A stretch of 25,271 bases of DNA from a virus: IMG/VR virus record IMGVR_UViG_3300045988_133315, positions 1-25,271 of that record. One strand, 5' to 3'. A program made the translations under genes and the position numbers. Within the stretch, counting starts at the first letter, position 1; each line of letters opens with the position of its first letter. The notes beneath the pieces are model-generated. The model ran no database searches, was not told the origin of the DNA, and saw only the letters and a list, made by a program, of their open reading frames with translations. This document shows positions 76-25,263 of this stretch, piece after piece.

Positions 76-151
76 TGGCGGTCCAGATGGGACTCGAACC
101 CACGATCTCCTCCGTGACAGGGAGGCATGTTAACCACTACACCACTGGACC
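76..151 (-). tRNA. tRNA-Asp (anticodon GUC), CCA encoded
   Basis: The reverse complement reads GGTCCAGTGGTGTAGTGGTTAACATGCCTCCCTGTCACGGAGGAGATCGTGGGTTCGAGTCCCATCTGGACCGCCA. It folds by hand into a cloverleaf: 7-bp acceptor GGTCCAG/CTGGACC, anticodon stem CCTCC/GGAGG with loop CTGTCAC, T arm GTGGG-TTCGAGT-CCCAT, discriminator G. Confidence 0.93.
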
Positions 152-359: not shown

Positions 360-1121
360 TTATTGAACCTCAATCAATGGGCCACAGTTTACCCAAACTC
401 CGCCAATCTTTGCGAGATCCTTTTTCACATTGACTTCATCAACACGAATTCTAGTAACGTAGACAATCGCATCTGTGGTATGCAATACGTTGTCATTGTA
501 TCCATCTGAATTGCGTACCTTGTCAACTAAGCTGATTGGAAACCAACCACCTAATTGAGCTAGATATGCACACAAATCATCATTGATTTGTTTCAAACCT
601 TCATCTCCAATTTTCATCTGAACGGATGTCACATAACTACCTGCATGCAAGATCTGGTCAATCGCTTCTTCATGTTGTGGAATACTTGGTTTAGCTGCTC
701 CTGTATTCGCAAAACATTTAGGTCTAAATGCTGTATCGAATGTTGCATAATAAGGTAATTTACAAAGTGTAAATGCTCCATTCTTTCCTCCTTGGTTCTG
801 TCCTAAAAACCAACCGAACTTACCATCAATGTCTGAATCGAAAATTGCAATGTGTGAATACGGTGTCCATCCTGCTACTTCCTTGAATACTGCGATATCT
901 CCCGGTTGCATCACTGAAACCTCGTTGCAGTAGTTCAAAATTCCGTTAGTCTTACGATTGTTCCAAATATCCTTAACAAAGCTACTTGTCGTACAGTGAA
1001 TTGCCTTATAACCTAAGTCAATCATGTACTTCATAGTGCCATCCCAACATTGAGCACCATAGTATCCATCAATGTCATAGGCTTTCCCCATTACTTTTTC
1101 TTTAAAATCATTATAATTCAT
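360..1121 (-). CDS. Endolysin: N-terminal CHAP peptidase/amidase domain plus a C-terminal cell-wall-binding domain of unassigned type
   Basis: CHAP-like catalytic context GAQCWDG (Cys) and YSHIAIF (His). The gene directly abuts the holin stop and is the last gene of the late operon. Confidence 0.85.
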   Translation of the reverse strand: MNYNDFKEKVMGKAYDIDGYYGAQCWDGTMKYMIDLGYKAIHCTTSSFVKDIWNNRKTNGILNYCNEVSVMQPGDIAVFKEVAGWTPYSHIAIFDSDIDGKFGWFLGQNQGGKNGAFTLCKLPYYATFDTAFRPKCFANTGAAKPSIPQHEEAIDQILHAGSYVTSVQMKIGDEGLKQINDDLCAYLAQLGGWFPISLVDKVRNSDGYNDNVLHTTDAIVYVTRIRVDEVNVKKDLAKIGGVWVNCGPLIEVQ

Positions 1122-1346
1122 TTACTCTTCCTCCGGTACACTAATTTCAGGTAATCCGCCAATACTAGTCAATAGCGAAACAACGCCTGACAAAACCGCT
1201 GACGAAATTACAACTCGCCAATCAACGGCTTCCAATAATGCAGATGCTCCAATAACACCAACAGCAGTTTGAGCAATTGTCTTTAATGCTCTGATACTTG
1301 CATAATAGCCATATTGAATCCACCATTCTTTACTATATTTTTTCAT
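1122..1346 (-). CDS. Holin (74 aa, two predicted TM helices, acidic C-terminus)
   Basis: Hydrophobic segments TIAQTAVGVIGASALL and VVISSAVLSGVVSLLTSIGG, tail PEISVPEEE. Strong RBS GGAGG upstream. It sits immediately upstream of the endolysin. Confidence 0.7.
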   Translation of the reverse strand: MKKYSKEWWIQYGYYASIRALKTIAQTAVGVIGASALLEAVDWRVVISSAVLSGVVSLLTSIGGLPEISVPEEE

Positions 1347-1385
1347 TTACAAATACCTCCTATCCTAATGATAGTATTTAAATCG

Positions 1386-1404
1386 TTTGTACACTGTACA
1401 AAAT
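1386..1404. promoter_or_regulatory. 19-bp palindromic box TTTGTACACTGTACAAAAT (copy 1) upstream of the holin; a -10-like TATCAT (1368-1373, minus) lies 20 nt after the dyad centre
   Basis: Identical to the 19-mer at 24001-24019. The core is the inverted repeat TTGTACA-C-TGTACAA. It lies between a terminator and the holin RBS. Confidence 0.5.
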
Positions 1405-1426
1405 AAAAGACCGTATTTAACGGCCT
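1400..1426 (-). terminator. Rho-independent terminator after the accessory cassette
   Basis: Minus-strand RNA hairpin AGGCCGU-UAAAU-ACGGUCU (7 bp including one G.U) followed by UUUAUUUU. On the plus strand the wobble becomes an A.C mismatch, so it is minus-specific. Confidence 0.6.
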
Positions 1427-1908
1427 TATTGATACATATTAAACATGTCTCGTATATGTGTCTTAATCATTGTTTTTTCTTCATCTGAATCAACGCATCC
1501 ATGAATCATAGTTACGATTTGTTGCATACATTTCATAGTCTTATCTAATTCACGATGAGACTTTTCCAAATCCATCTCACCTTTTGTACGCGTATATTCT
1601 TCTTTGAACGCTTTATATTTTTTCAAATGTTCTGCAAGCTTATAAACAATATCTTCTGTTTCTGGATCATGAATATTATATCCATCATTATCTTCTTTTA
1701 ATCTTGCAACAGTTGAAACTCCATCTTTTCCTATCTCAATTTGATATTTATTTCTCATTGCTTCTATAGTTTCAATGTCTTTGATATTATCTAAAGCTTG
1801 AGATAATGCATGGAAATAAGATTCTGCATATCCATATTTCTCTAACATGTTTACTGACTCATGCATTATCTTCTCATTAACTTCCATTGCTTTATGCATA
1901 TATTTCAC
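1426..1908 (-). CDS. Hypothetical helical, acidic His/Cys-containing protein (the more likely start is ATG at 1899, after AGGTGA)
   Basis: Long ORF translationally abutting the upstream gene (stop 1909). No family recognised. Confidence 0.6.
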   Translation of the reverse strand: MKYMHKAMEVNEKIMHESVNMLEKYGYAESYFHALSQALDNIKDIETIEAMRNKYQIEIGKDGVSTVARLKEDNDGYNIHDPETEDIVYKLAEHLKKYKAFKEEYTRTKGEMDLEKSHRELDKTMKCMQQIVTMIHGCVDSDEEKTMIKTHIRDMFNMYQ

Positions 1909-2343: not shown

Positions 2344-2374
2344 ATTAAAATAGGGATAGCCTTTCGACTATCCC
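2344..2374 (-). terminator. Intra-cassette hairpin with GAAA tetraloop and a U-rich tail (attenuator or partial terminator)
   Basis: The minus RNA reads GGGAUAGUC-GAAA-GGCUAUCCC (9 bp including a U.G) then UAUUUUAAU. It sits only about 25 nt before the next start codon, so there is no room for a new promoter. Confidence 0.45.
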
Positions 2375-3769: not shown

Positions 3770-3840
3770 CTCTTTACGCTTTAATTATATAGTTGCACAA
3801 TAAATAACTTAATACTCGAATAATACTCATAAAATACCCA

Positions 3841-3872
3841 AAATAAAATGAGCAATCACTATAGATTGCTCA
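3841..3872 (-). terminator. Rho-independent terminator ending the tail-fibre/holin-like/sigma4 transcription unit
   Basis: Perfect 9-bp stem TGAGCAATC/GATTGCTCA (3849-3857 and 3864-3872) with a 6-nt loop, followed on the minus strand by UUUUAUUU. It overlaps the last codons of the sigma4-like ORF. Confidence 0.6.
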
Positions 3873-4092
3873 CATATTTATCGAACATTTTTCTTGCTTT
3901 GCATACTCTGTTCCTTATGGTTTGTACTTCCACACATAATGCATCTGCAATTTCCGTGCATGACATATCATACACGTATCTCATAATCAAAACCTGTTCA
4001 TATTTCTTTCTTAATCCAACAGATTTGATAAGTATTAATGCATCATTAGGACGTATTTCTTTTAATCTGTTAGCTTTGTTAATATAAACCAC
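3859..4092 (-). CDS. Stand-alone sigma-70 region 4 (HTH) protein, 77 aa
   Basis: KKYEQVLIMRYVYDMSCTEIADALCVEVQTIRNRVCKARKMF matches the region 4.2 pattern L..R.v..LRY...s..EIA..lg.s..TV..r..RAr..l. GTG start with a weak RBS. Confidence 0.6.
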   Translation of the reverse strand: MVYINKANRLKEIRPNDALILIKSVGLRKKYEQVLIMRYVYDMSCTEIADALCVEVQTIRNRVCKARKMFDKYVSNL

Positions 4093-17174: not shown

Positions 17175-17499
17175 CTAATGTCACCGTCCATTCTGTACAG
17201 TGTACTTTTTGAGCTTTTATATCTTCATCTGTGATGGTTTGGTATGGTATTTCTAATTCATCAAACATGTCTTCGATTTTAGCTTCTAATTCAAAGTCTT
17301 TTTGATCAGTCACTAATCTATATATGTAAGTCCCAATCTTACAATACGTTCTATTGTCTGCAAAGTAATTATTTGTATAATCCAATGCATAATTCCCATA
17401 GGGGGTATGGGGTTTTGATTTGAAACTTCCGTATACAAATTGTCCTTCACCTAAAAGTTCAGTGAATTTAGCTACAATCTGTTGTCTTACTGTTTCCAT
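17161..17499 (-). CDS. Neck/tail-completion protein (family not assigned)
   Basis: Co-oriented, overlapping ORF within the connector block. Confidence 0.55.
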   Translation of the reverse strand: METVRQQIVAKFTELLGEGQFVYGSFKSKPHTPYGNYALDYTNNYFADNRTYCKIGTYIYRLVTDQKDFELEAKIEDMFDELEIPYQTITDEDIKAQKVHCTEWTVTLVGRK

Positions 17500-20210: not shown

Positions 20211-21411
20211 TGTAACTAATTCCTCCTTGATTTGATTTAGTTACCTGGATATATTCACCTCGAATAAAACGTTTCTTACCTTCATCATCTGGTAAAGGCG
20301 CTTTGTTCATGATATTTAATGCCCCATTCGTATCAATCATTCCTCTATCGAACATTTGAGTCGCAACATTTAATTTTGTTTGTGTCGAATCATACTGTAA
20401 ACGATCACTTGTAAGAATGATTTCACTACCATTCATAATCTGATTTACGGAATATAACATTCCACTCAACACTTCTCCAACTTCAATAAAAAATGGTTCA
20501 ATAATTGATTCATAAAATGCATTCCATTCATCAGGTTTATATTTATTTTGTAAAATAGCTTCACTAATTCCAAAATAGCTGTATACACTATTTTCAATTG
20601 CTTGTTTCTGCTTGGCATCCACTAATAGTGGTTTACTTTCAATCGGTTTTACTTCATCAAAACGATTATCAACAAGGAATACACCTGTTTCATTTTTGTT
20701 CAGGTTATTTCTTAAGATCATGTTCTGTTGTTCCTTGTAATCCTCATCATCATCAATCGGTGTTGAAATTCTAGCTAAGAATCGAACAATAGAACTCGAC
20801 TTAATCGCATTGATTGCTCCTTCTTCCTGAGCAAGCATCAATTTAGCTGTTGTATCAAATGCATCATTCGTATCACCAAAGTAATCATTTTTATACTGCA
20901 TTTGTCTTAAATGCCCTACTTTACTGTATTCAATCAATTTTGTTTCGCCATAGATAAAATTAAAATAAATATAAACTACACCATTGATTTCTTTTAGTTG
21001 ACACTGACTTGGAACAGCAGGCCATAATCCTTTTATCATTCCATATTCATCTTCAATTGGAATAATGAAAGCATTGTTTTCTGCAAAATAGATAGTTGCC
21101 AATCTTTTATAAAATTGACTAGCTGTCATATAAGGATTTGGCTTTTTCTTAACCAAATAGTTATATATCTTGCTTTTGTAGTCTTTGTTTGTCAGTTCAG
21201 GTGAAGCTTTTCCACATGATGTGGCAATTCGATTGATACATGCTCTGCATAGTCCAATCTCATATATTCCACCATCATATGACGAATACACTGGTGAATA
21301 TCCACCTAAGCTTGCAAACATTGAATGTAATTGATTTTGTTTAGGTGCTGGCTTATTTAGTCCTAATAGACTTCCTAGCAAACCAAATCTTTTTCTTCTG
21401 CTTTTAGCCAC
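20137..21411 (-). CDS. Portal protein (HK97 family)
   Basis: 424 aa, directly downstream of TerL with overlapping stop/start. Confidence 0.9.
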   Translation of the reverse strand: MAKSRRKRFGLLGSLLGLNKPAPKQNQLHSMFASLGGYSPVYSSYDGGIYEIGLCRACINRIATSCGKASPELTNKDYKSKIYNYLVKKKPNPYMTASQFYKRLATIYFAENNAFIIPIEDEYGMIKGLWPAVPSQCQLKEINGVVYIYFNFIYGETKLIEYSKVGHLRQMQYKNDYFGDTNDAFDTTAKLMLAQEEGAINAIKSSSIVRFLARISTPIDDDEDYKEQQNMILRNNLNKNETGVFLVDNRFDEVKPIESKPLLVDAKQKQAIENSVYSYFGISEAILQNKYKPDEWNAFYESIIEPFFIEVGEVLSGMLYSVNQIMNGSEIILTSDRLQYDSTQTKLNVATQMFDRGMIDTNGALNIMNKAPLPDDEGKKRFIRGEYIQVTKSNQGGISYNGETEPQQNPNALDPVPNEPGDGK

Positions 21412-23069
21412 TAATTCACCTTCCTTTTCTTGTTTTCAAGGCGGTATTTAAATGTATCCCACCATTTTTGTCTTACTGTATATGCATCAATAACAGATGC
21501 ATATCCATCAATATGTTTTCTTGGATCAGTTTTAATCATGCGGACACGATTGTCCTCAGCAACTTTCTTTAATGCCACACTAGACATATGTGCTTGTAAT
21601 AATCCATTTGTTCCTGTATGAACAAATCCATCTCTTACATATCCCGTAAATTCATTAATAACCGGTGTAAGGTTAGTACCCTGAATGACATCATCCATCT
21701 TGTATCCATATTTCTTCATATCATCCACAAGATACTGTGCGGAATAACGGTCATATCCAACGACTACACAATAAATCTTGTATTTCTTACGTAGCATTTC
21801 AAACCATTCAGTAACATCTTCATACCGTACAAAGTTTTCCCCACTTGGACTTAAATACCCCAATTGAATAAATCTTGTATATGGTATCTTGTCTCTTTCT
21901 TCTAGCTCCTTGATTTTTAATGTTGGAAGCCAAAAATGAGTAAATATGTAGTCCTGCTCTTGAATTCGTATAACTACAGATGCGGCTGTTAAATCGGTTG
22001 TTTGTGACAAGTCAATTCCACCAACTGCATATGTATGTGCAAAATCTTCAAATCTAAGTTCTTCACCTTTGACTTTGTTAATATCTTCTGCACTAAATAA
22101 TGCTTCCGTTGAATTCTGTTTGATATTCGCATATTTTGTTATAAACTCCGCCTTATATGTAGGTGAGCTATGTGCTTTTAAAATTTCATTCTGCAAATAT
22201 TCATAAGAAACCGATATTCCAAGGTTTGGCATTGCTTTTCTCAATTCAATAGGATCATCCCATTTTTGAATATCATCAATCATATAAAAGAAAGGCAACA
22301 TTTGTTTTTCATCAGACGTACCAAGTAAAACAGATGTTCCACGAACAAATAATTCATCATATAATCCTTCATCAATATAGTTTGCGGTACTTACAGGAAT
22401 ATAAAGTGGATCAGGTCTTGCACCACCTGCCGACAACATAACGTTGTACATTTTCATACCCGCTTCACCTTCCCAGGCTGCAAACTCATCAAAGATTGTC
22501 AAATATGGGTTGAATCCGTCTGACTTTTTAGATGCAAAGGCAATTGGCTCCCATCTACAGTTGTTCTGTTTCATGTAGATATCTGTTCTACGTTTTTTTA
22601 CTCTTTGACTCAACGCTTTAGAGTGTTCCATCATTTGATACAGAACATTGTAAATGATCTGCGCTTGTTTTAACTTTGGCGCAATATTGTATATCTGCAT
22701 ACCTGCTTCATCAGATGTAAATCCAACATCAAGTTCAATACCTGCACAAAGAAATGATTTTCCTTGTTTTCGGCCCATGACCGTAGGTATTTCACGAAAC
22801 TGCCTTTTTCCATTCTTATCAACAAGTCCGAATATGCACGCAATATAGTATTTTTGCCAAGGCTCAAGCTTCACTTTTGTTGTTTTTCCTTCTACGTGAT
22901 GACAAAACGTTTCAATAAACGCAATATGCATTTCCGCTTTTTTCTCATCATAGAAGAAATCTCCATTTGCTAAACCTCTTTCAACATATTGAAGATTAAG
23001 CTTTATCCACTTACCGACTACATCTTCACCCGATTTAATACGTTCTTTATAAATGTCTAGATATTTCAT
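21411..23069 (-). CDS. terL: Terminase large subunit
   Basis: 552 aa. The Walker A-like region MGRKQGKS fits an ATPase domain. Sits in the canonical TerS-TerL-portal order. Confidence 0.95.
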   Translation of the reverse strand: MKYLDIYKERIKSGEDVVGKWIKLNLQYVERGLANGDFFYDEKKAEMHIAFIETFCHHVEGKTTKVKLEPWQKYYIACIFGLVDKNGKRQFREIPTVMGRKQGKSFLCAGIELDVGFTSDEAGMQIYNIAPKLKQAQIIYNVLYQMMEHSKALSQRVKKRRTDIYMKQNNCRWEPIAFASKKSDGFNPYLTIFDEFAAWEGEAGMKMYNVMLSAGGARPDPLYIPVSTANYIDEGLYDELFVRGTSVLLGTSDEKQMLPFFYMIDDIQKWDDPIELRKAMPNLGISVSYEYLQNEILKAHSSPTYKAEFITKYANIKQNSTEALFSAEDINKVKGEELRFEDFAHTYAVGGIDLSQTTDLTAASVVIRIQEQDYIFTHFWLPTLKIKELEERDKIPYTRFIQLGYLSPSGENFVRYEDVTEWFEMLRKKYKIYCVVVGYDRYSAQYLVDDMKKYGYKMDDVIQGTNLTPVINEFTGYVRDGFVHTGTNGLLQAHMSSVALKKVAEDNRVRMIKTDPRKHIDGYASVIDAYTVRQKWWDTFKYRLENKKRKVN

Positions 23070-23440
23070 TTAAATCTGCTCATAAACTCATCCAATTCAT
23101 CACCTTTTTTTCCGGATACTTCTGTTGTCTTTGAGAGTGAAGTAGGTGACAAGCCAAGTTCTTTGCAGTACTTCATGATCTGATCACGTAATTGAACGGT
23201 AATAATGTAGTATGGCGAGCGTGATAAATTCGTTGCACCGCCCTTATTCGTATATTCAACAACCATCTGTAATGATTTGTAGCCATTTGCTTTACTTGAA
23301 TCTCTCCATTGCTTCATTGTTGAATCATATTGGGCCAAGGCATCTGCAAGTGAATCAACTGCAACAGAATATTCAGGAGAAAATGTGCCTAAATTCTCTA
23401 GTTGTGAATTGATTCTTTTTTTCCATGCTCCTTTTTGCAT
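23066..23440 (-). CDS. terS: Terminase small subunit (P27-family-like)
   Basis: 124 aa, 4-nt overlap with terL, strong RBS GGGAGGA. The pattern ...SPYYIITVQLRDQIMKYCKELGLSP is typical of P27-type TerS. Confidence 0.8.
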   Translation of the reverse strand: MQKGAWKKRINSQLENLGTFSPEYSVAVDSLADALAQYDSTMKQWRDSSKANGYKSLQMVVEYTNKGGATNLSRSPYYIITVQLRDQIMKYCKELGLSPTSLSKTTEVSGKKGDELDEFMSRFK

Positions 23441-23841
23441 TCATCATCCTCCCTTCCACATCCTATAAGCATTCCGTTTTCATCAAACTCAAAAGATGGT
23501 TTACGTTTGGAATGTTCTTCGGCATGACATAAGTCACACAACGCTTCCAAATTAGAATCGCCAAATAGAATGTGTATATCTCTATAGTTGTCCTGGTCAA
23601 TGTGCACTTTGTGGTGCACGCAAGTCGACCTGGTATAGATACCTTTTTTCAAACATCTTTCACAAAGTGGATGTGCCTTTCTATACGCTTTGCTTTTCTT
23701 TTCCCAAGCCTTGCTTGAGTAAAATTTTCTAGCATAATTTCTAGCACCTGTTTTTGTTGCTTCTGAACCATAATATTTTTTCATATCGCTACATTCAAAG
23801 TTTTGACCATAACTACAGTTAACAAATTTAAAGGACGACAA
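23398..23841 (-). CDS. HNH endonuclease associated with cos packaging (the probable start is ATG at 23784; the longest ORF starts at TTG 23841)
   Basis: CERC...VHHKVH....N...LC..CH motif arrangement. Immediately upstream of and overlapping terS. Confidence 0.85.
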   Translation of the reverse strand: MSSFKFVNCSYGQNFECSDMKKYYGSEATKTGARNYARKFYSSKAWEKKSKAYRKAHPLCERCLKKGIYTRSTCVHHKVHIDQDNYRDIHILFGDSNLEALCDLCHAEEHSKRKPSFEFDENGMLIGCGREDDECKKEHGKKESIHN

Positions 23842-23881
23842 AAACTAACAGTAAATACTTTGAATGCAGTGATATGAAAAA
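23777..23881. repeat. 25-bp imperfect inverted repeat (23777-23801 / 23857-23881, 55-nt spacer) covering the HNH start codon
   Basis: The left arm TTTTTCATATCGCTACATTCAAAGT pairs with the right arm ACTTTGAATGCAGTGATATGAAAAA. Of 25 positions, 23 are Watson-Crick, one is G.U and one is a mismatch. Confidence 0.65.
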
Positions 23882-23906
23882 GACCCATGTTTCCACAGGT
23901 CTTTTT
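23877..23906 (-). terminator. Promoter-proximal intrinsic terminator upstream of the packaging operon
   Basis: The minus RNA reads AAAAA-GACCUGUG-GAAA-CAUGGGUC-UUUUU (8-bp stem with two G.U pairs, GNRA loop, U5). The wobble pairs become mismatches on the plus strand. Confidence 0.6.
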
Positions 23907-24000
23907 CAACGGGCACTAAAATGAAACAATCCAAGAACTACCTTGTTTGTTCTAGAAGATGTTTTCCAATCTTCACGACTACAGAATATCACGGTTTTTC

Positions 24001-24019
24001 TTTGTACACTGTACAAAAT
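24001..24019. promoter_or_regulatory. 19-bp palindromic box TTTGTACACTGTACAAAAT (copy 2); an extended -10-like TGATATTCT (hexamer 23983-23988, minus) lies 20 nt after the dyad centre
   Basis: Exact 19/19 identity to 1386-1404 in the same orientation, with the same spacing to a TATNNT hexamer. Confidence 0.5.
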
Positions 24020-24035
24020 GAAGAAATTCAGATTT

Positions 24036-24220
24036 TACCCCCTCTCATGCACTCATGACCCAGTTTTTTTGAACTCCCCACGCCGTTCCCCGAAACCCAA
24101 AAAACTTCCGAAAGATAGGGGGGTCTATGCTGATCTGATCCATGCCCAGGGCGCTTTCAGGGTTCAAAATTTGATTCATGCAGCTACCATAACGCCGCAC
24201 CGCTCACGGCTTCAATCATA
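24036..24220. other. GC-rich island; candidate cos (cohesive end) region
   Basis: About 50% G+C by hand count over 24061-24220, against an AT-rich background. Contains CCCCCTCTC / GGGGGGTC, GAACTCCCCACGCCGTTCCCCGAAA, and short repeats (CTCATG x2, TGATC x2). Non-coding, just upstream of HNH-terS-terL. Confidence 0.4.
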
Positions 24221-24437: not shown

Positions 24438-24461
24438 AAAAAAAGGACGGTCAAACCGTCC
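24438..24461 (-). terminator. Rho-independent terminator inside the non-coding region
   Basis: The minus RNA reads GGACGGU-UUG-ACCGUCC followed by U7. Confidence 0.65.
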
Positions 24462-24589
24462 ACACATATATATTTATAAGTCTGATAACTCTATCTTATA
24501 AGACCAAACGCAAACACTAGAGAAAGCCTTACAAATAGGCGCTTGCGTGCACGTTTGCAAAACTAAAAGCTTTTTGAAAAAATGAGCAT

Positions 24590-24625
24590 AAAAAAAAAGA
24601 CGGCTTTATATTTTTGTGCCGTCTT
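24590..24625 (-). terminator. Rho-independent terminator of the HTH regulator gene
   Basis: The minus RNA reads AAGACGGC-(13-nt loop)-GCCGUCUU followed by U9. It overlaps the last codons of the ORF. Confidence 0.6.
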
Positions 24626-24812
24626 CAAATTCAAAATAGCATTTGTATTTTGCGCCTATCGCTTGCGCCATTTTTTCAAGTTCTTCATCTGTGAATTTTT
24701 CGCGTTTGATTCTAGTGCTTACATTTTGCTTGGTGCATCCAAACGCATCCGCGATATCTTGCTGGTTTTTATGAGCATAAGCAAGCGCGGCTATAATTTG
24801 ATTTTCTTTCAT
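24606..24812 (-). CDS. Small XRE/Cro-type helix-turn-helix regulator (68 aa)
   Basis: HTH segment NQQDIADAFGCTKQNVSTRIKR. RBS GGGAGG. It has its own promoter and terminator. Confidence 0.85.
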   Translation of the reverse strand: MKENQIIAALAYAHKNQQDIADAFGCTKQNVSTRIKREKFTDEELEKMAQAIGAKYKCYFEFEDGTKI

Positions 24813-24968: not shown

Positions 24969-25136
24969 GTGGCAAAGTATAAACGTAGCAAACCGATGAA
25001 ACGTCGCGATAGAAAAAAGCGCGAAAAAAAAGAGCGCATGATTTCGTACCTATCCAAAACGTTCGAAATTATATACACGCTCTTAATCGGTGAAGCCCTC
25101 AAGCTTCTTGCTAAATATCTAAGTGACTTATTTTAG
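24969..25136 (+). CDS. Small protein (55 aa) with a poly-basic N-terminus and a hydrophobic/amphipathic C-terminus; not in the ORF track
   Basis: AGGAGG (24956-24961) lies 7 nt before the GTG. Translation: MAKYKRSKPMKRRDRKKREKKERMISYLSKTFEIIYTLLIGEALKLLAKYLSDLF. The stop lies in the loop of a 9-bp hairpin (25119-25144). Confidence 0.5.
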   Translation: MAKYKRSKPMKRRDRKKREKKERMISYLSKTFEIIYTLLIGEALKLLAKYLSDLF

Positions 25137-25263
25137 TCACTTAGGTACTTATATTATACCACGTTTTAAAATATGGAACTACTAAAAATAGCGTTATTAC
25201 TATCGTTAGCATTCAATGCATATCTTTTAAAAAAAATGATTGAAAAGTAAGGAGGTAAAGATT

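Follow-up and report, generated by a model that had tools for sequence, protein, structure and literature searches.

The window analyzed here, a 25,271-nt stretch of viral DNA (positions 1 to 25,271 of the IMG/VR record IMGVR_UViG_3300045988_133315), carries two identical copies of a 19-bp near-palindromic box, one upstream of a holin-endolysin cassette and the other upstream of the HNH-terS-terL packaging and morphogenesis operon. We propose that this box serves twice as the operator of a late promoter of the activator-dependent Ltr type, with a DUF1492 (LtrB-family) protein as its most likely reader, and we give this interpretation a probability of roughly 0.55. It builds on the sequence, the geometry and the conservation of the box observed here, and on its observed co-occurrence with a regulator gene. 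Late promoters that depend on Ltr proteins have been described in temperate Firmicute siphophages (PMC3753634, PMC3152322, PMC13123087). The Ltr superfamily comprises RinA, ArpU, LtrA (Sigma70_r4), LtrB (DUF1492) and LtrC, which activate terS promoters via short 7-nt repeats (PMC3753634). Promoters of terS without a -35 are among the known targets of this kind of regulator.

The box and its conservation

The window contains exactly two copies of the 19-mer TTTGTACACTGTACAAAAT (1386-1404 and 24001-24019), both on the plus strand and in the same orientation relative to the minus-strand genes, as the initial annotation had reported; none of 100 dinucleotide-preserving shuffles held as many 19-mer matches. 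The core described in that annotation, the dyad TTGTACA-C-TGTACAA, was located at 1387-1401 (center 1394) and 24002-24016 (center 24009). TGTACA is self-complementary, which allows two readings of the box: a 7-1-7 dyad, or a pair of tandem 7-nt units (TGTACAG and TGTACAA). The TGTACA hexanucleotide is not otherwise enriched in the window (11 observed versus 9.4 ± 2.8 expected). A third near-copy at 17194-17206, with one mismatch in 13 positions, was set aside as a chance match, as it lies within a gene, points the other way and has no hexamer; about 1.7 matches are expected by chance for a 13-mer with up to two mismatches. The box hairpin was likewise rejected as a terminator or RNA element, since its folding energy reaches only -4.4 kcal/mol (z -1.7).

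Read on the coding strand, both sites consist of ATTTTGTACAGTGTACAAA, followed by 12 nt that are unrelated between the sites and then by a TAnnnT hexamer. At box 1 (1386..1404, minus strand; an exact match) the -10-like hexamer is TATCAT (1368..1373, minus), 12 nt 3' of the box and before the holin gene. At box 2 (24001..24019, minus strand; the identical 19-mer) it forms part of an extended -10-like element, TGATATTCT (23983..23991, minus), in which TGA precedes the hexamer TATTCT (23988..23983), again 12 nt 3' of the box. The hexamer thus starts 21 nt past the dyad center at both sites, the distance given originally, and outside TAnnnT the hexamers are not conserved between them. The box had been placed where a -35 element would be expected, and this position holds: relative to the predicted start sites, the measured span is about -43 to -25, with the center near -33. 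A sigma-70 consensus scan gave no promoter at either site, in agreement with the reported lack of a -35 element.

The search beyond the window that the initial annotation had suggested found the exact 19-mer in 105 IMG/VR stretches, mostly human-gut viral contigs of 40-47 kb, and in all of them it occurs only in the two contexts seen in the window. Over all the sequences examined, including the window and a metagenome-assembled genome (MAG) from GTDB, 62 HNH-type and 50 holin-type sites were counted, and at least 46 IMG/VR contigs carry both. In GTDB, taken as one genome per species, the box is present in a single genome, an 'uncultured Solobacterium sp.' MAG (Erysipelotrichaceae), where it occupies both sites; the remaining three GTDB matches to the 19-mer lie in unrelated chance contexts. 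Since the GTDB matches therefore amount to one prophage and three chance occurrences, there is no sign of a host regulon at the level of the 19-mer. A megablast of the window against 50,697 phage records returned a tRNA match only, and the closest TerL among those records is 48% identical; consequently, this phage has no close annotated or cultured relative.

Constraint on the box was assessed in loci retrieved with sequences that do not contain it. The hairpin of the box-2 leader, used as a box-independent query of IMG/VR, recovered 64 loci, in all of which (64/64) the 15-bp core is intact; the exact 19-mer is kept in 62 of them, and in the other two the last base alone is changed. With the region of the holin start codon, 55 sequences were recovered, and the core is intact in 51. 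Core substitutions in this holin-side set comprise one each in the singletons L254 (TCGTACAG..) and L256 (..TGTATAA) and one in L214/L215. The holin-side relatives also show several changes just outside the core, and their hexamers read TATCAT, TATTAT, TACTAT or TAGTAT, so that TAnnnT is kept. The extended -10 element TGATATTCT at box 2 is invariant in all relatives.

The most informative variation comes from the diverged lineage L214/L215, whose holin is 73% identical to that of the window and whose order of late and lysis genes is unchanged. Upstream of the holin, this lineage has a terminator hairpin followed by ATTTTGGACAGTGTACAAT, CTTTTTTTTATG and TAGTAT. Compared with the window, 17 of the 19 bases of the box and the 12-nt spacing are kept, and only 4 of the 12 spacer positions. 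At the sequence level, the box and its spacing from the hexamer thus leave a phylogenetic footprint in L214/L215. The box-2 site of the lineage was sought with its own box variant in IMG/VR and in one metagenome, and these scans gave chance matches only. Furthermore, phages of different genome architecture that share only a homologous holin (L212, L213, L216/217, L259 and L261) have no box, which indicates that the element follows the phage lineage rather than the holin gene.

Candidate reader proteins

The initial annotation had seen in the box a phage-specific late promoter class, read by a dimeric activator or by an alternative sigma-like factor. The promoter class fits the comparative evidence, given the two late positions in more than 100 relatives, the retention of the element in a diverged lineage, the missing -35 and the presence of an LtrB-family gene. 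As to the reader, the activator now has a concrete candidate in DUF1492, and the sigma option is weaker because no full sigma factor (region 2 plus region 4) was found: the only such protein is a 77-aa polypeptide restricted to region 4, and no sigma-2 fold was detectable in the AF2 model of DUF1492.

The DUF1492 protein is 155 aa long in related genomes and matches PF07374 at E values of 2e-5 to 9e-5 (23-25 bits versus a cutoff of 21.5). Its gene is outside the window; in relatives it is found 4.4-6.8 kb upstream of box 2 and is the last recognizable early gene in L086, L010, L111 and L258. Of the 12 loci that extend 5.5 kb or more upstream of box 2, 9 have the gene, among them all seven that extend 8 kb or more. 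The gene shares a contig with box 2 in L258, and with box 1 in an ENA contig of which L111 and L210 represent overlapping portions.

The DUF1492 subfamily is very narrow, with nine representatives among 1.84 billion proteins. A tblastn search with this very distant family member found no match in the 50,697 phage records. The residues of its C-terminal helix-turn-helix (HTH) are invariant across homologs down to 45% identity, and the AF2 model (pLDDT 85.6) consists of a long helical hairpin and a C-terminal three-helix HTH; a Foldseek comparison of this model with the PDB returned coiled-coil noise only, with no match at E ≤ 0.001. The diverged L214 overlaps L117 over 1.6 kb (96% identity), and L117 encodes a DUF1492 homolog, P0008, that is 48% identical, a link that would be consistent with the slightly altered box of this lineage. 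In another lineage, P0007/P0016, the recognition helix is CSRNKMFYNIRKELRK. The contigs of the P0007 and P0008 lineages stop before the late genes, and P0007 is absent from IMG/VR. By elimination and family precedent, DUF1492 is the best candidate for the TGTACA box among four HTH proteins considered.

The rival candidate reader is the 77-aa protein that contains only sigma-70 region 4 (3859..4092, minus strand). It matches Sigma70_r4_2 (PF08281) above the family cutoff (E=5.8e-9), and its gene (4092..3859) is present in 36 of the 36 holin-side loci long enough to show it. This protein might read the box as an LtrA-type (Sigma70_r4) activator, or as a surrogate region 4 that replaces the -35 contact, and the box is located where region 4 normally touches DNA. 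The T4 MotA boxes, which are centered near -30, provide a parallel for the surrogate model. Moreover, the P0005 phage, with a 97%-identical version of this protein, and L214, in which it is well conserved, have both retained the box.

However, the sigma-4 protein appears to have a site of its own. A separate promoter class follows its gene (3784..3839, minus strand) and consists of three direct repeats, RRGTATTW, with an 11-nt period (3839..3810), and a TATAAT hexamer (3789..3784). This array is the single match in the window, against 0.02 expected by chance, and spans about -62 to -33. A bidirectional terminator (3873..3848) separates it from the sigma-4 gene, and beyond it comes the 149-aa to 160-aa gene block. 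Three lineages (L214, L212 and L210) have kept the array in this position after the sigma-4 gene; L212 encodes a 61%-identical homolog and has the array, and no TGTACA box was found in the 20 kb examined. Its position is the classic place of an Ltr target. The sigma-4 gene also lies within the late region, so that the protein would be needed before the promoter expressing it fires. Judging from this arrangement, the gene and the array look like a second, canonical Ltr-type regulator/promoter pair inside the late region, and the sigma-4 protein more likely regulates the promoter directly 3' of its own gene than the box. We therefore regard it as an unlikely reader of the box.

The other two HTH proteins were rejected as readers. 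A 68-aa HTH protein encoded just upstream of cos and box 2 (24812..24606, minus strand) was found in 15 of the 41 loci with a box and is missing from the other 26, and its identity across relatives ranges from 100% to 37% while the box is invariant; on this distribution, it is an accessory regulator and not the reader. It has weak similarity to Phage_CI_repr and sigma-r4, together with its own promoter (direct repeats AATGTTTGAT ×2) and terminator. The family's own CI-type repressor was dismissed because the switch region (L111 1690-1855) uses TACAT-N3/4-ATGTA dyads; this immunity region contains no box-like sequence within three mismatches.

A dyad of the same type as the box, TTGTACA-A/G-TGTACAA, is nevertheless tied to repressors in phages that are unrelated to this family. 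It occurs in the gut phages L121 (6145-6159) and L187 and in at least about 25 further IMG/VR loci, where it lies beside a TTGACA promoter that also has a half-site in its -35/-10 interval, and where a CI-type (PF07022-like) repressor gene follows directly. Phages with such CI operators also appeared in a relaxed dyad scan of IMG/VR, in which the matches listed were otherwise mostly chance. HTH dimers of the CI class therefore use the dyad, and the box could accordingly be imagined as a repressor operator, at which a dimeric HTH repressor of the phage or of a co-resident prophage would cover the -35 region of two weak promoters, constitutive in themselves, and silence the packaging and lysis genes in the lysogen. 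In favor of this model, the box is a perfect 7-1-7 dyad that overlaps the predicted core promoter. On the other hand, the family switch region has a different dyad, and the family repressor is only 31% identical to that of L121. The 68-aa HTH protein encoded nearby is missing from most of the box-bearing phages, and promoters without a -35 and with a poor -10 would scarcely need repression. We hold repression through the box to be improbable.

The two late units and their surroundings

The gene calls made originally around both boxes stand, with PHROG and Pfam matches for the holin, endolysin, HNH, terS and terL genes, and all the genes surrounding the two boxes are on the minus strand. Box 1 precedes a 74-aa, r1t-type holin (1346..1122; PF16945/phrog_443) and a CHAP endolysin (1121..360), which together form the lysis cassette (360..1346). 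On its other side, an intrinsic terminator hairpin recovered by a terminator scan (1407..1427, minus strand; -10.1 kcal/mol, z -5.1) closes the upstream late operon. The U-tract of this terminator (1427..1407) reaches into the 5' flank of box 1, and a hairpin is found at the corresponding place in L214. Since the terminator abuts box 1, the lysis cassette is an insulated unit, and the only promoter-like element visible for it is the box with its hexamer.

Directly 3' of the endolysin, a tRNA-Asp(GTC) gene on the minus strand has its own near-consensus sigma-70 promoter, TTGACA-17-TATTAT (window 76-151, 304-332). The relative L210 has an integrase gene after the lysin, in the place of this tRNA gene, which may be either a phage gene or part of the host attachment site. 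Reverse-transcriptase (RVT_1) genes lie beside tail-fiber or lysis genes in relatives (L210 5212-6255; L261 777-1874), with none in the window, and these loci are probably diversity-generating retroelements.

Box 2 precedes the genes for an HNH endonuclease (23841..23398), TerS (23440..23066) and TerL (23069..21411), all on the minus strand. This gene order (21411..23841) is the start of the late operon and continues with portal, head and tail genes. The earliest possible start of the HNH open reading frame (ORF; 23841, minus strand) is a TTG without a Shine-Dalgarno sequence, because a TAG stop lies two codons upstream, so that the first late gene appears to have a weak or atypical start of translation.

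A conserved non-coding leader of about 135 nt (23842..23978, minus strand) separates the predicted start site from HNH; it contains the stem-loop GAAGAUUGGAAAACAUCUUC and a terminator. The leader folds at -38.4 kcal/mol (z -3.45) and is highly conserved among relatives; an Rfam search found no family match for it. Its terminator is strong (23875..23908, minus strand; -20.6 kcal/mol, z -6.1), with a 15-bp stem, a GAAA loop and a U5 tail, and it shows compensatory changes in relatives (23908..23875: GACC..GGTC to GATC..GGTC to GATC..GATC, and G.U to G-C). Since this terminator separates box 2 from HNH, expression of the late operon may require more than activation of the promoter.

An alternative built on the terminator would make the box the loading site of a Q-like processive antiterminator, so that an RNA of about 100 nt would end at the leader terminator unless the polymerase is modified. 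Box 2, the leader and the terminator would then be a Gram-positive analogue of lambda Q / pR' / tR', with the late genes gated by antitermination and not by initiation alone. In such a scheme, a box-loaded DUF1492 or sigma-4-like protein, or a put-like leader RNA, would make the polymerase termination-resistant, and the holin box would serve as a plain activator site. The terminator with its compensatory substitutions about 70-100 nt past the predicted start, the conserved and structured leader, and more terminators within the late region (3873..3848, 2374..2353 and 1427..1407) are compatible with this idea. The sigma-4 protein also has a weak similarity to Phage_antitermQ (PF06530), which is below threshold (E=4e-4; 20.8 bits versus 26) and confined to the HTH. 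However, there is no terminator between box 1 and the holin despite the same element and spacing, no Q-family protein was found above threshold, and Rfam gave no match. Apart from the terminator, the leader stem-loops are invariant and for this reason give no covariation. We consider gating by antitermination quite improbable, both as a function of the box and as a description of the box-2 region as a whole.

One end of the virion DNA also falls close to box 2. The contigs L051 and L072 terminate in an Illumina adapter fused directly to GTTCAAAAAAACT / GTTTAAAAAAACT, and L034 begins at the identical base; these ends place the left end of the virion DNA, produced by cos cleavage, at about 24074, within a G+C-rich cos region (24040..24200, minus strand) and 54 nt upstream of the box-2 19-mer. 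Lambda-like phages have cosB-type TerS binding sites between cos and the terminase genes, and box 2 lies only 54 nt inside the left end in just this interval. The box might thus be a non-transcriptional element, either a terminase (cosB-like) or a recombination site, duplicated by chance. Such a role is highly improbable, considering that the second identical copy, 22.6 kb away, lies directly upstream of the holin at the same distance from its hexamer and is kept in a diverged lineage, and that there is no packaging reason for it there.

An antisense ORF across box 2 (23921-24058) was rejected, as its frame is broken by indels in relatives. Between the accessory genes and cos, a non-coding stretch (24440-24600, minus strand) is closed by a good terminator (24461..24445) and is conserved in altered form in L111, a more distant relative; this stretch might encode a small RNA. 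On the plus strand, a 55-aa ORF (24969-25136) has a good ribosome-binding site, an extremely basic N terminus (KYKRSKPMKRRDRKKREKKER) and a hydrophobic C terminus, and is followed by a 13-bp bidirectional terminator (25116-25147). The predicted product looks like a small toxin or membrane peptide, and its ORF runs against the phage late genes. Three tandem 24-nt iterons (CTGTCCAATGTACAAAAGACAAAT) within the replication-gene region of relatives (L111 4745-4800 / L210 19133-19180) are probably the phage origin; TGTACAA is common to these iterons and the box by chance.

Proposed control and its relation to known systems

In the mechanism that we propose, the box would be the specificity element, replacing the -35 before a weak -10 (TAnnnT). 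The host RNA polymerase, carrying the primary sigma factor, would initiate only when the phage HTH activator, putatively DUF1492, occupies the box, bound as a dimer either to the 7-1-7 dyad or to the two tandem 7-nt units. One early-made factor would in this way turn on two separate, insulated units, the packaging and morphogenesis operon and the holin-endolysin cassette, with the terminator against box 1 insulating the latter from the late genes that precede it. A probable role of the leader terminator at box 2 is to keep the operon silent and to attenuate or gate its expression; otherwise, it might be read through by a modified polymerase.

Several observations weigh against this reading, and they must be set beside the evidence for it. 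In the main family, the whole 200-nt neighborhood is nearly invariant and the box is no exception, which is the reason why loci were retrieved by box-free sequences. The footprint argument consists of a single diverged lineage and the holin side only, and the link of L214 to P0008 rests on an overlap of 1.6 kb at 96% identity with another contig. The co-occurrence of the sigma-4 protein with the box is as perfect as that of DUF1492. The strong conserved terminator between box 2 and HNH is unexplained by simple activation, and, as judged from its genomic contexts, the dyad TTGTACA-A/G-TGTACAA is an immunity operator for CI-type repressors in unrelated gut phages. This terminator, the proximity of box 2 to cos and the use of the dyad as a CI-type operator elsewhere are absent from the initial annotation. 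The layout of the site is also a point of concern. Characterized Ltr sites are made of three or four direct repeats further upstream, whereas here there is one 15-bp dyad (or two 7-nt units) centered near -33, over the -35 position. Similarly, those sites are immediately distal to the ltr gene, whereas the box is 4.4-6.8 kb from the DUF1492 gene.

If confirmed, the box would be the first DNA target to be defined for a late regulator of the DUF1492/LtrB type; in the searched literature that mentions the family, there is no definition of a DUF1492/LtrB binding site. It would also represent a layout unlike the textbook Ltr arrangement, in which one dyad replaces the -35 and is used twice, so that one factor would control packaging and lysis while each remains an insulated unit of its own. 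With more than 100 IMG/VR stretches, the phage family is abundant in human-gut viromes; its host is Erysipelotrichaceae-like, and we know of no phage regulation described for such a host. In addition, the box with DUF1492 and the GTATT repeats with the sigma-4 protein are compact and apparently orthogonal predicted promoter-regulator pairs, which makes them possible genetic parts for low-G+C Firmicutes.

Among the known systems that come close are the CI operators of L121 and L187, which have nearly the same 7-1-7 dyad, TTGTACA-N-TGTACAA, at promoters. Those operators, however, lie in the immunity region, beside the repressor gene and at promoters with good -35 and -10 elements, and the immunity operator of the present family differs from them. 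The textbook lambda Q / pR' / tR' system shares with box 2 a promoter-embedded protein-binding element (predicted here), a short leader and a strong terminator before the late genes. Unlike the lambda Q system, there is no Q-family protein above threshold here, the second box is without a terminator, and constitutivity of the promoter is unsupported.

A second type of resemblance concerns promoter architecture. At the lambda cII promoters pRE, pI and paQ, the repeats flank the -35, and cII binds direct TTGC repeats as a tetramer; at the middle promoters of T4, MotA needs the co-factor AsiA to remodel sigma region 4. The cII and MotA promoters, like the sites described here, have an activator site in the -35 region, a usable -10 and no -35. 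The proteins here are not homologous to those activators, in contrast, and no AsiA-like factor was identified.

The Ltr systems remain the best functional counterpart. The well-characterized late promoters of this type keep the -10 and have their repeats upstream, at -107 to -42 or at -76 to -32, and Phi13 and the Alt protein of the lactococcal phage TP901-1 are related late activation systems (PMC13123087). Unlike the single long late transcript of Ltr systems, a second identical promoter-like site precedes the lysis cassette here, and the leader of the packaging operon contains a conserved terminator. As in the Ltr systems, the predicted packaging promoter of the window has a -10 and units that can be read as 7-nt repeats, here without a -35, and packaging and lysis functions would both be under control. 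Thus, the kind of control is most likely one that is already known, an Ltr-type activator-dependent late promoter, and it is the layout of the site that is unusual.

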